DNA of 4,409 nt. It comes from a virus. Taxonomy: Duplodnaviria; Heunggongvirae; Uroviricota; Caudoviricetes. The translations under genes and the position numbers were made by a program. This document shows positions 1-4,409 of this stretch, piece after piece (the stretch's first letter is position 1; the number at the start of each line of letters is the position of its first letter). The notes under the pieces were generated by a model. It was not told where the DNA came from. It did no database searches and saw only the letters and a program-made list of their open reading frames with translations. The stretch lies in the IMG/VR virus record IMGVR_UViG_2728369553_000001; one strand, written 5' to 3'.

Positions 1-1188
1 CCCCCATCAGCGTCATGATGGATCAGATGGGGATGAACGGGGAGTCGGCAGGTAATGCCCTGCGAAAAGTTATCCAGTCCGGATTAAGTGTTAAGAAAAT
101 CAGGGACGTCAATAAAGTCATGGCCCGCCAGAAACTCGGGATACAGCTCGATTTTACTGACGGCAAAGGAAGTTTTGGCGGTCTTGATAACATGTTCAGG
201 CAACTGGCAAAGTTGCGAAAACTGACCGACGTTAAGCGAACAGGCGTACTTAAGGCAATATTTGGTGATGATGCTGAAACCCTTCAGGTGGTCAATGCTC
301 TGATCGATAAAGGAAAGGATGGTTACGATCAGATCCAGCAGAAGATGAATAAACAGGCCAGCCNNNNNNNNNNNNNNNNNNNNNNNNNNNNNNNNNNNNN
401 NNNNNNNNNNNNNNNNNNNNNNNNNNNNNNNNNNNNNNNNNNNNNNNNNNNNNNNNNNNNNNNNNNNNNNNNNNNNNNNNNNNNNNNNNNNCACGAAGTT
501 TGCGGATGAAAATCCCCGGGTTATTCGCGGCGTCGTCGGGCTTGCTGCCGGTCTTGCGATTCTGAAGCTGGGATTGATGGGCGTGGGCAGTGCCATCAGT
601 ATTGTCAGCAGGATCATGTCGATGACGCCGATTGGCATGATTGCGACGGTGATAGCCCTGGCTGCGGGATTAATTATCACTAACTGGGATGTTGTCGGAC
701 CTTATTTTAAGAAACTCTGGGAAACCATTGGTCCTTATTTTGAGACTGGCTGGGAACTTCTTAAGAAGGTTTTTGCCTGGTCGCCGCTGGGGATGGTGAT
801 CAATAACTGGGGACCGGTTGTTAAGTGGTTTCAGGATATGTGGGACAAGCTGAAGCCAATTATTGAGTGGTTTACCGACAGTTCCGGTGACACGGTCGAT
901 GCCATTAACTCTGCGCAGTGGGGCGCGGGTGCTTATGATGCTTATGGGACGGGAATACCGGCGCGGGGATACACACCTTATCCGGCGGTGGATCCGGCTC
1001 AGGCAAACAACGCCTCCGATGCCACAGGCTCGAATCCCTTCATGATTAACAAAGCTTCTGCGCCAAAAGTCGATGGTGAGATCAAGGTCTCTTTTGTGAA
1101 TTCGCCTCCGGGTATGCGGGTTATGGAAACGCGATCCAGCGGTTTTGATGTCAGCCATGATGTTGGCTATACGCGCTTTGGCAGGTAA
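1..1188 (+). CDS. phage tail tape measure protein, C-terminal portion (5' end lies upstream of the window; interrupted by the N-run at 364-491)
   Basis: Frame 0 is open from the first base of the window (no stop before the ATG at 15), so the gene starts upstream. The pre-gap translation (..GESAGNALRKVIQSGL..LDFTDGKGSFGGLDNMFRQLAKL..) looks like the conserved central region of tape measure proteins. After the gap the open frame (TKFADENPRVIRGVVGLAAGLAILKLGLMGVGSAISIV.., ending YTRFGR, stop TAA 1186-1188) is hydrophobic with regularly spaced Trp/Phe, typical of tape measure C-terminal regions. It sits directly upstream of Mu-like baseplate genes. The post-gap frame is +1 relative to the pre-gap frame given 128 Ns, so continuity as a single gene is inferred, not shown. 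Confidence 0.8.
364..491. other. run of 128 N (assembly gap or masked sequence) inside the tape measure gene
   Basis: Directly visible: 128 consecutive n characters. Content unknown. Confidence 0.99.
697..762 (+). repeat. two tandem imperfect 33-bp direct repeats (11-codon units) within the tape measure gene
   Basis: 697-729 GGACCTTATTTTAAGAAACTCTGGGAAACCATT (GPYFKKLWETI) is followed immediately by 730-762 GGTCCTTATTTTGAGACTGGCTGGGAACTTCTT (GPYFETGWELL), roughly 23 of 33 nt identical by eye. Trp residues recur at about 11-residue spacing through this segment (NW..LW..GW..AW..NW). Confidence 0.5.
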
Positions 1189-1210
1189 TGAAAAATTAAT
1201 CTGTTAATGA

Positions 1211-1233
1211 GTCCCACTCCGGTGGGATTTTTT
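1211..1233 (+). terminator. candidate intrinsic terminator or attenuator hairpin (short GC stem, UCCG tetraloop, T-tract) between the tape measure and gpN-like genes
   Basis: CCCAC (1213-1217), loop TCCG (1218-1221), GTGGG (1222-1226) form a perfect 5-bp stem that can extend by T1212-A1227, followed by TTTTTT (1228-1233). The stem is short, so if functional it is probably only a partial terminator. Confidence 0.3.
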
Positions 1234-1248
1234 ATGTACGGAGTTTAT

Positions 1249-2571
1249 ATGACGTGGAAAGACAGACTTCAGGACGCGTCATTTCGCGGTGTGCCGTTTA
1301 AGGTTGAAGAAGAAAGTGCGGGAACCGGTCGTCGTGTGGAAACGCACGAATACCCGAACCGCGACAAACCCTATACCGAAGACCTGGGGAAAATCACTTT
1401 CCGCCCGTCCATCACAGCTTATGTGGTGGGAGATGACTGCTTTGACCAGCGCGATCGCCTGATTGACGCGCTGAATAAACCCGGTCCCGGCACGCTTGTC
1501 CATCCGACATACGGTGAGCTGAAAGTCTGTGTTGACGGGGAAGTTCGGGTCAGCACATCGAAGAATGAAGGGCGTATTGTCCGCTTTGACCTGAAGTTTG
1601 TCGAAGCGGGAGAACTCTCTTACCCCACATCAGGTACGGCGACGGCGCAGACGCTGATGTCATCCTGTTCTGCACTGGATGACTGCATCCGTGACAGTTT
1701 CAGAGGTTTCAGTATCGATGGCGTGGCGGATTTTGTGCAGAACGACGTCGTCGGTAATGCCAGCACAATGCTGGGGTATGTTTCTGATGCGATGAAAGTG
1801 GTGGATTCTGCCGTATCGGATGCCGCCAGGCTGTTGCAGGGGGATATCTCGGTANNNNNNNNNNNNNNNNNNNNNNNNNNNNNNNNNNNNNNNNNNNNNN
1901 NNNNNNNNNNNNNNNNNNNNNNNNNNNNNNNNNNNNNNNNNNNNNNNNNNNNNNNNNNNNNNNNNNNCGGTGTCAGCCTTGGCAGCGATCTGCAACCGCG
2001 CGGCGTCTGGAAAACGGACAGTAAAACCACCGCCACGGCGACACAGCAGCGTAACGTGGTTGCCAGCATCCTTCGTACGACCGCAATCAGCGAAGTGGCG
2101 TATGCCGTCACCCGATTGCCTGCGCCAACAACTTCCGCGGTGATGCAGAATGCCGCAGTGGGGCAGGCAACAACACCCGCGCAGAGCACTGGCTGGCCTT
2201 CCGTCACGCATCCGGCACTGAACAATGCACCGGCGGTGAAAAGCACGGTTGACCTGCCAACGTGGGAAGAACTGACTGACATTCGCGACACACTGAATAC
2301 GGCAATTGATAAGGAGTTGTCCCGTACAACCAGTGATGCGCTGTTTCTGGCGCTGCGCCGGGTGAAAGCAGATCTGAATGCGGATATCAACACGCGCCTT
2401 GAACAGTCTGCACGGATCATTCAGCGCACGCCGGATGAGGTTTTACCCGCGCTGGTGCTGGCGGCGACCTGGTTTGATAACGCGGCGCGTGACGGGGACA
2501 TTATCCGGCGTAATGCCATTACGCATCCCGGCTTTGTGCCGGTGATCCCTCTGAAGGTGCCAGTGCAATGA
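1249..2571 (+). CDS. DNA circularization protein, phage Mu gpN (gp43)-like
   Basis: Long ORF with N-terminus MTWKDRLQDASFRGVPFKVEEESAGTGRRVETHEYPNRDKPYTEDLGKITF.., which matches my recollection of the conserved N-terminal domain of Mu N-type proteins. It lies between a tape measure gene and a Mu P-like gene, as in Mu. Start chosen at ATG 1249 (GGAG at 1241-1244 upstream, and downstream of the hairpin); in-frame ATGs at 1207 and 1234 are alternatives. Stop TGA 2569-2571 overlaps the next start. The frame is preserved across the N-run at 1855-1967. Confidence 0.85.
   Translation: MTWKDRLQDASFRGVPFKVEEESAGTGRRVETHEYPNRDKPYTEDLGKITFRPSITAYVVGDDCFDQRDRLIDALNKPGPGTLVHPTYGELKVCVDGEVRVSTSKNEGRIVRFDLKFVEAGELSYPTSGTATAQTLMSSCSALDDCIRDSFRGFSIDGVADFVQNDVVGNASTMLGYVSDAMKVVDSAVSDAARLLQGDISVXXXXXXXXXXXXXXXXXXXXXXXXXXXXXXXXXXXXXXGVSLGSDLQPRGVWKTDSKTTATATQQRNVVASILRTTAISEVAYAVTRLPAPTTSAVMQNAAVGQATTPAQSTGWPSVTHPALNNAPAVKSTVDLPTWEELTDIRDTLNTAIDKELSRTTSDALFLALRRVKADLNADINTRLEQSARIIQRTPDEVLPALVLAATWFDNAARDGDIIRRNAITHPGFVPVIPLKVPVQ
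1855..1967. other. run of 113 N (assembly gap or masked sequence) inside the gpN-like gene
   Basis: Directly visible: 113 consecutive n characters. The flanking reading frame of the 1207/1249..2571 ORF is continuous across it as written. Confidence 0.99.
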
Positions 2572-3648
2572 ACGATAACGTCACGCTACGGGTAAATGGC
2601 CGGGAGTGGAATGGCTGGACATCGGTGCGCATCGGTGCCGGTGTTGAACGACTGGCGCGGGATTTCAGTGTGGAGATCACTCGCCAGTGGCCGGGAGATG
2701 AGGGTATCACCACGCTTCAGCCGCGCATTAAAAACGGTTCAAAAGTGGAAGTGCTGATTGGTGATGAGCTGGTGATCACCGGCTGGGTGGAGGCGACGCC
2801 CGTTCGTTACGATGCCCGTTCGGTCAGCACCGGTATTGCCGGACGTAGTCTGACCGCTGACCTGATTGACTGTGCAGCCGAACCGACACAGTTTAACGGA
2901 CGCTCGCTGGTGCAGATTGCGCAGGCGCTTGCTGCGCCTTTCGGCATTGAGGTGGTGAACAGCGGTGCGCCGTCGGGTGTTATTCCTGATGTTCAGCCTG
3001 ATCACGGTGAAACGGTGATTGAGGTAATCAACAAAATACTCGGTCAGCAGCAGGCGCTGGCTTACGACGACCCGCACGGCAGGCTGGTGATTGGCGGTAT
3101 TGGCTCAACGCGGGCACATACCGCGCTGGTACTTGGGGAAAACATCCTTTCCTGTGATACGGAGAAGAGTATCCGGGAGCGGTTTTCTGTTTACCAGGTG
3201 GCGGGGCAGCGTGCCGGAAACGACGATGATTTCGGTGAGGCCACCACCACCGCGCTGCGGGCCCGCACAGAGGACGCATTTATTGCCCGTTACCGTCCGA
3301 TGTATATCAGGCAGACAGGGCAGGCCACGGGGGCAGGTTGTATTGCGCGTGCTGACTTTGAAGCCCGACAACGGGCGGCGCGGACGGATGAAACCACCTA
3401 TGTGGTGCAGGGCTGGCGACAGGGTAACGGTACGCTGTGGCAGCCCAACCAGCGGGGTGATTGTCTTCGATCCGGTCTGTGGTTTCGACAATACCGAACT
3501 GCTTGTCTCGGAAGTCACGTTTACTCAGGACCAGAACGGCACCCTGACGGAAATCCGTGTCGGCCCACCTGATGCTTATCTGCCTGAACCCGAAGCCCCC
3601 GGCGCGCGGAAAAAGAAAAAAGCCAGAGTACAGGAGGACCCGTTCTGA
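2568..3648 (+). CDS. Mu gp44 (P)-like baseplate hub protein; reading frame broken by one extra base in a GGGG run at 3454-3457 (pseudogene or homopolymer sequencing error)
   Basis: ATG 2568 overlaps the upstream stop (ATGA), with an AAGGTG Shine-Dalgarno-like motif at 2554-2559. Frame 0 reads MNDNVTLRVNGREWNGWTSVRIGAGVERLARDF.. through ..YVVQGWRQGNGTLWQPNQR, then runs into a non-conserved-looking tail (GDCLRSGLWFRQYRT..) and stops at 3572. The +1 frame from 3457 reads VIVFDPVCGFDNTELLVSEVTFTQDQNGTLTEIRVGPP.. and ends with TGA 3646-3648, precisely overlapping the gp45-like start. Removing one G from 3454-3457 joins the two frames as ..QPNQRVIVFDP... Confidence 0.8.
3633..3638 (+). promoter_or_regulatory. 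Shine-Dalgarno sequence (AGGAGG) for the gp45-like gene
   Basis: AGGAGG lies 9 nt upstream of ATG 3648. Confidence 0.6.
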
Positions 3649-4196
3649 TGAGGACGATTGAAGCCATGCAGCGACAACTTCTCGGCCTGATTGGGCGGGC
3701 AGTGGTGAAAAGCATCAGTGCCGCCACGAAATGTCAGACCGTGGATGTGTCCCTGATTGCCGGTGAACCCAAAGCCGGGGTTGAACATCTTGAACCCTAC
3801 GGTTTTACCGCAAGGGCAAACAGCGGTGCGGAAGCGGTGGTGTTGTTTCCGGATGGCGACCGTTCTCATGCGGTGGTTGTTACGGTGTCGGACCGGCGCT
3901 ACCGCCTGAAAGGGCTGCAGACGGGTGAGGTGGCTGTCTATGACGATCAGGGGCAGTCTGTGACGCTGACCCGGGAGGGGATCGTGGTGGACGGTGCAGG
4001 TAAAACGATCACGTTTCGCAATGCGCCCAGAGCACGTTTTGAAATGGACCTGGAAGTGACCGGACAGGTGAAAGACCTGTGCGACTCCGGCGGTACCACC
4101 ATGTCAGCGATGCGGCTTGCCTATAACGGGCATCGTCACAGAGAGAACGGTCAGGGCAGTAACACCGACAAACCTGATAAAGCGATGGAGGCATGA
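3648..4196 (+). CDS. phage baseplate assembly protein V / Mu gp45-like central spike protein
   Basis: 182-aa ORF with a strong Shine-Dalgarno site. The translation (MRTIEAMQRQLLGLIGRAVVKSISAA..VDVSLIAGEPKAGVEHLEPYGFTARANSGAEAVVLFPDGDRSHAVVV..GIVVDGAGKTITF..CDSGGTTMSAMRLAYNGHRHRENG) resembles P2 gpV / Mu gp45 type spike proteins. It sits in the expected position after the hub gene. Stop TGA 4194-4196 overlaps the next gene's start. Confidence 0.85.
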   Translation: MRTIEAMQRQLLGLIGRAVVKSISAATKCQTVDVSLIAGEPKAGVEHLEPYGFTARANSGAEAVVLFPDGDRSHAVVVTVSDRRYRLKGLQTGEVAVYDDQGQSVTLTREGIVVDGAGKTITFRNAPRARFEMDLEVTGQVKDLCDSGGTTMSAMRLAYNGHRHRENGQGSNTDKPDKAMEA

Positions 4197-4409
4197 TGGA
4201 ACTGTGGCTGACGGTGAACGGTAAACGCACCTGCGCCAGCGCACCGCTGGATCCGCTGACCCGCGCCGTGGTGATTTCCCTGTTTACCTGGCGGCGGGCG
4301 GAGCCTGATGACAACGCCGATGTCCCGATGGGATGGTGGGGGGATACCTGGCCTGCGGTACAGAATGACCGTTACGGCTCCCGACTGTGGCTGCTTCAGC
4401 GCAGCAAAC
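4196..4409 (+). CDS. phage GP46 family baseplate protein (Mu gp46-like), 3' end outside the window
   Basis: Open frame from tandem ATGs at 4193 and 4196 to the window end with no stop: MMELWLTVNGKRTCASAPLDPLTRAVVISLFTWRRAEPDDNADVPMGWWGDTWPAVQNDRYGSRLWLLQRSK. This matches my recollection of the GP46 family N-terminal region (..ISLFT..RA..DD....GWWGD..). GGAGG at 4187-4191 is 4 nt upstream of ATG 4196, so 4196 is favoured over 4193. This ORF is absent from the supplied ORF track, presumably because it has no stop in the window. Confidence 0.75.
   Translation, partial: MELWLTVNGKRTCASAPLDPLTRAVVISLFTWRRAEPDDNADVPMGWWGDTWPAVQNDRYGSRLWLLQRSK

Follow-up and report, generated by a model that had tools for sequence, protein, structure and literature searches.

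A Run of 128 Ns in a Prophage Tape Measure Gene Very Probably Stands for About 154 Nucleotides of Intact Coding Sequence

Introduction

The length of a phage tail is set by the length of its tape measure protein, as exemplified by gpH of phage lambda and gp29 of phage T4. The closest described systems to the locus considered here are the serotype-converting Shigella phages SfII, SfI, and SfV, to which the DNA is 97.5-98.1% identical over its whole length. Their tape measure proteins belong to a single family, which includes orf14 of SfV, gp16 of SfII (YP_008318494.1), the SfI version, and WP_016239930.1 from an E. coli prophage. The similarity is close: SfII gp16 and the tape measure protein of E. 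coli ECONIH5 share 603 of 611 residues (99%) and align without gaps. A sister phage, SfIV, has a different tape measure gene, reported to be <50% identical, and a contractile tail of ∼101 nm (PMC3851460); its tape measure also differs from the one described below.

The DNA analyzed, hereafter the window, is a stretch of 4409 nucleotides from the virus record IMGVR_UViG_2728369553_000001. It can be placed in a tail module by its own gene content, namely a tape measure gene followed by those for DNA circularization, the baseplate hub, baseplate assembly protein V, and a gp46 product. The same order is found in SfII (sheath, tube, assembly protein, tape measure, DNA circularization, hub, V, gp46), and both SfII and an identical locus of ECONIH5 include the sheath, tube, and assembly genes that lie upstream.

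In the window, the tape measure gene is interrupted by a run of 128 Ns, and the two halves, as written, do not share a reading frame. Is this break a property of the virus? Or, does it belong to the way in which the record was put together? Very probably the break is not biological, and the frameshift is only apparent, an artefact of assembly, because genomes with identical flanks hold 154 nt at this place and one intact 611-residue gene.

Results

A reference is provided by the closed chromosome of E. coli ECONIH5 (NZ_CP026202.1), in which the corresponding locus was fetched as L001; the part around the first gap is at 547,430-548,655 of this chromosome, on its minus strand. Outside the N-runs, the 4168 bases of the window align to it with 0 mismatches, in three exact blocks: window positions 1-363 correspond to L001 4001-4363, positions 492-1854 to L001 4518-5880, and positions 1968-4409 to L001 6000-8441. 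The tape measure gene falls in the first two of these blocks, and the genes and the hairpin described below lie on the + strand of the window.

The pre-gap part of the tape measure gene occupies positions 1-363. Within it, positions 3-362 are the codons for residues 209-328 of the 611-aa protein (ECONIH5 numbering), and base 363, a C, opens codon 329 (CTG, Leu). The 128-N run follows at 364-491, where genomes with identical flanks have 154 nt and residues 329-380. The post-gap part extends over 492-1188 (L001 4518-5214, with the match continuing beyond): base 492 closes codon 380 (TTC, Phe), positions 493-1185 encode residues 381-611, and the stop codon of the gene is at 1186-1188.

Read literally, the interval 363-492 has 130 bases, which is no multiple of 3 and puts the halves of the gene in different frames. 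The pre-gap frame, with codons ending at 362, runs across the Ns into a TGA at 507-509 (ORF 15..509), and the post-gap ORF 574..1188, in phase with position 493, reaches the tape measure stop. The first-pass annotation, made from the letters of the window, had pointed out precisely this discontinuity, with the frame ending at 362 and resuming at 493, and its account is accurate. It was also right in calling the gene a tape measure: the pre-gap fragment scores 40.8 bits against Pfam PF10145 (PhageMin_Tail; cut-off 33.2; E = 2.8e-10), the full 611-aa ECONIH5 protein scores 94.7 bits against the same family, and the gene is annotated accordingly in ECONIH5 and SfII. In statistical terms, the break is unremarkable, since an N-run of arbitrary length disrupts the frame two-thirds of the time.

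What lies under the Ns? In ECONIH5, the interval is L001 4364-4517, which has 154 nt (3 × 51 + 1) versus the 128 Ns, contains no stop codon, starts with TGAATAAACGTGTTCAGG, and ends with GGGGGAAAAATT. As 154 is of the form 3k+1, it is exactly the length that restores the tape measure frame. The ECONIH5 gene (L001 3379-5214; 1836 nt, 611 aa, WP_016239930.1) is a single ORF, and the 52 codons masked by Ns in the window encode, in ECONIH5, residues 329-380 with the sequence LNKRVQAQLGTLSNLWEAMTGTATNGLAAIGGAFSGDAKNITQWLGELGEKF. Two checks had been proposed with the first-pass annotation, and both can be answered from these data. A hidden length of 3k+1 without a stop, which was to signify one intact gene, is what is seen in ECONIH5 with its identical flanks (154 nt, one 611-aa ORF), and the comparison of the flanks with a full-length homologue assigns the hidden part to residues 329-380, colinear with SfII gp16 at 603/611 identities.

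The same length is found in other assemblies that share the flanks of the window. Logan assemblies were retrieved by an exact-product look-up of the truncated hub ORF, a rare frameshift allele common with the window (discussed below), and three of these hub-allele assemblies are long enough to take in the tape measure gene (L126-L128, from the unrelated read sets SRR6490560, ERR13265974, and SRR19433013). Each has the flanks of the window, 154 nt at the first gap, and a called tape measure gene of 611 aa. The spacing at this gap is also 154 nt in the loci L130, L123, and L124, and, over all loci fetched, the same anchors are separated by 154 nt in 129 of 130 related loci. Four assemblies whose flanks are the same as those of the window have an unbroken tape measure ORF of 611 aa, and the ORF is unbroken in 128 of the 130 related loci. 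A complementary view is given by the span of the match in 59 complete E. coli genomes with a multi-piece match, taken evenly down the ranking, in 57 of which the span in the record equals that in the query plus 26 nt. One of the possibilities raised at the outset, that the stated length of the gap is a mere approximation, is borne out by the 154 nt in ECONIH5 and in 129/130 loci.

The hidden segment is variable in its nucleotides and conserved in its product: 38 distinct nucleotide versions occur among 130 loci, and an identical 52-residue peptide is present in 115 of them. With 15 of 26 variable sites at third codon positions, the pattern is, as judged from sequence comparison, that of a coding sequence under purifying selection. 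The hidden part is an ordinary conserved coding stretch, located directly upstream of the hydrophobic central region of the tape measure.

A few relatives depart from the common arrangement and merit a separate description. The sole one with 152 nt in the hidden segment is IMGVR_UViG_2695420343_000006 (L011 10242-10423), in which the tape measure gene is frameshifted. Here, two homopolymers are each a base shorter (GGGGG → GGGG and AAAAA → AAAA), and this 2-base loss looks like a homopolymer sequencing error. As for the span comparison, the 2 exceptions out of 59 are E. coli 1332KP and E. coli RM13322, and neither was retained as natural variation of the hidden segment, given that the duplication in 1332KP lies elsewhere and RM13322 is an apparent artefact. 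In E. coli 1332KP (NZ_CM173849.1, L133 379-2334), the tape measure protein occurs as a natural variant of 651 aa, in which 40 residues are duplicated in tandem (SGDTVDAINSAQWGAGAYDAYGTGIP...); if expressed, this variant would be expected to give a longer tail. A PH-domain gene has also been inserted in this strain, after the tape measure gene and ahead of the DNA circularization gene. In RM13322 (NZ_CP050498.1, L134 ∼1196-1775), ∼580 nt of G-free, low-complexity sequence replaces nt 818-1325 of the tape measure gene, which is split into two annotated partial pseudogenes in a genome labeled complete. The G-free stretch has the look of an error in the assembly of that record.

The window contains a second N-run, and it offers an independent view of how such runs are to be read. 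It consists of 113 Ns at 1855-1967, within the DNA circularization (Mu gp43-like) gene at 1249..2571 (L001 CDS 5275-6603; Pfam PF07157, DNA_circ_N, E = 7.7e-35). At this site, ECONIH5 has 119 nt (L001 5881-5999) encoding ...LLPPPSSGKNFVEQVQKMWRTGKRLYGNASDLVTMIKTLS..., and the same 119 nt length is present in L126-L128. The frame of the DNA circularization gene is kept across the 113 Ns only by luck, because the error happens to be 6. Since this run is also mis-sized (113 versus 119), the lengths of the N-runs in this record are generally inexact and behave as estimates.

The remaining features of the window are those of the neighboring tail genes. Downstream of the tape measure gene and ahead of the DNA circularization gene, at 1209..1238, lies a terminator-like hairpin (GAGTCCCACTCCGGTGGGATTT and then a T-run); a terminator scan returned this 1 site versus 0.3 expected, and in the SfII record it is described as a “putative rho-independent terminator”. 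The hairpin sits inside a late structural operon. At the other end of the window, the baseplate assembly protein V gene (Mu gp45-like, 182 aa) is at 3648..4196 (L001 CDS 7680-8228), with PF06890 recorded for an identical product. Only the start of the last gene, for a GP46-family baseplate protein, is included, at 4196..4409, where the window ends; it corresponds to L001 CDS 8228-8653 (PF07409), annotated in ECONIH5 as “phage GP46 family protein”.

The baseplate hub gene (Mu gp44/gpP-like) deserves particular attention. It spans 2568..3648 as two overlapping ORFs, 2568..3572 and 3091..3648, and has a real +1 frameshift, with GGGG at 3454-3457 versus GGG in relatives. The GGG allele was counted in 63 loci, and GGGG is confined to loci sharing the sequence of the window, where it recurs in several assemblies from independent read sets; the ECONIH5 annotation calls the gene a pseudogene, “frameshifted”. 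The hub frameshift is a true mutation, because the allele is in the closed ECONIH5 chromosome as well as in independent assemblies. On sequence grounds, the tail of this prophage is probably defective through it.

Another question concerns why an assembly should break at these two places. The hidden segments have no 12-20-mers in common with any other part of the 9.2-kb ECONIH5 locus, and their GC content is 52-53% versus 56% for the locus. Among ∼100-130 relatives, the mismatch density is 0.025 in the first hidden segment, equal to that of its flanks, and 0.004 in the second, below that of its flanks. None of the three properties examined, repeats, GC content, or diversity, explains a break at the hidden segments. 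Searches for other records with the N-run gave none, neither with the flanks at the exact 128-base spacing in viral and metagenome contigs or at a spacing of 126-156 in genome contigs, nor with product look-ups of the X-containing DNA circularization protein, the pre-gap ORF, and the post-gap ORF. Some E. coli genomes have up to 3 matching places, and near-repeats of the tape measure segment could break short-read draft assemblies.

Two observations on individual loci were made along the way. L123 and L124 come from the same chromosome of Shigella flexneri SFBU0723 (CP182557.1), both with the 154-nt spacing, and are either separate copies or overlapping fetches. Both anchors are also found, exact and 154 nt apart, in L125, a 297-bp contig with a coverage of 0.7 (NZ_JAGEMM010000052.1) from Microvirga antarctica 3D7; this segment of an E. 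coli prophage in an alphaproteobacterial draft genome is almost certainly contamination.

Discussion

In all likelihood, to judge from the genomes that share its flanks, the tape measure gene is intact in the source of the window, where about 154 nt take the place of the 128 Ns in the record. The Ns would be a placeholder for sequence that was unassembled or masked, for instance the size estimate of a scaffolder. With the 154 nt that we infer for the source molecule, the two halves would join into one intact tape measure protein of 611 residues, and this protein would belong to a contractile-tail prophage of E. coli of the SfV/SfII/SfI type.

Could the lesion be real instead? The sequence under the Ns would then truly contain, in the source, an indel that shifts the frame (such as a 26-nt deletion were the Ns an exact-length mask) or a nonsense mutation, and the tape measure gene of the source would be a pseudogene in a decaying prophage. 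We regard this as improbable. Taken at face value, 128 Ns do disrupt the frame, and the adjoining hub gene is truly frameshifted in the same prophage lineage, so that selection on the tail genes may be relaxed there. Defects in the segment also exist in 2 of 130 relatives (∼1.5%), namely the 152 nt of L011 and one W-to-stop allele. However, as a base rate for the hidden segment, ∼1.5% speaks against a lesion, and in every available assembly that shares both the flanks and the hub allele, the segment has 154 nt and an open frame. The second N-run, off its true length by 6, weighs in the same direction: if the Ns are read as exact lengths, then two independent deletions are needed, lying exactly under both N-runs, in contrast to 0 other differences from ECONIH5 in 4168 nt. 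A frameshifted pseudogene is recognized by an indel of non-3n length in the base calls, and positions 364-491 are all Ns; such an indel is present in the hub gene, at 3454-3457. The suggestion of a frameshift or indel inside the hidden segment, made in the first-pass annotation, thus finds no support in the assemblies with identical flanks, which all have the in-frame 154 nt. Little credence can likewise be given to the related idea that the tape measure gene has suffered an out-of-frame deletion and, along with the frameshifted hub gene, marks a prophage with a tail module inactivated stepwise.

Much further down the scale is a natural in-frame length variant of the hidden segment, by insertion, deletion, or duplication, which would alter tail length. 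The family does have a precedent in the 651-aa version of E. coli 1332KP, but its 40-residue tandem duplication is near the C-terminus (residues ∼511-550), outside the hidden segment. Moreover, the 130 loci include no in-frame length variant of this segment, and an in-frame change would fail to explain the 128 Ns, which makes this reading extremely improbable.

It is just as hard to believe that the halves are two separate genes, with a stop and then a new start within the hidden segment, an option named in the first-pass annotation. The discontinuity of the frame as written is the one observation that fits, and nothing else does. The annotated relatives inspected, ECONIH5 and SfII, hold a single 611-aa CDS, the gene calls in L126-L128 are likewise of 611 aa, and the post-gap part, colinear with residues 381-611 of SfII gp16, has neither a Pfam domain of its own nor a separate upstream start context. 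Programmed frameshifting at the first gap was rejected, as no relative requires a frameshift there.

The reading of the Ns as a placeholder over an intact gene has value as a caution alone. Both N-runs of the window have the wrong length, with errors of 26 and 6 bases, and the N-run lengths of drafts are unfit for inferring reading frames, pseudogenes, or protein length. Tail-length control, for its part, is not at stake in the discrepancy at the first gap. The gene under the Ns is already known: it is a widespread tape measure gene of E. coli and Shigella prophages, and a query with the first 1200 bases of the window, which are mostly this gene, finds similar sequence in 920 of 5426 complete E. 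coli genomes (∼17%).

Comparison with Known Systems

Seen against the sized gaps of scaffolded drafts, the window is a familiar case: its gaps are likewise pure N, their flanks are colinear with closed genomes, and the number of Ns is near, and unequal to, the true length (128 versus 154, and 113 versus 119). Seen against phages, it has a clear position in its group. SfIV, with its different tape measure gene, matches the window from position 1261 onward only. SfII, SfI, and SfV carry a tape measure of the same family as the window's, in which 52 codons are masked, and they differ from its visible sequence by few substitutions only.
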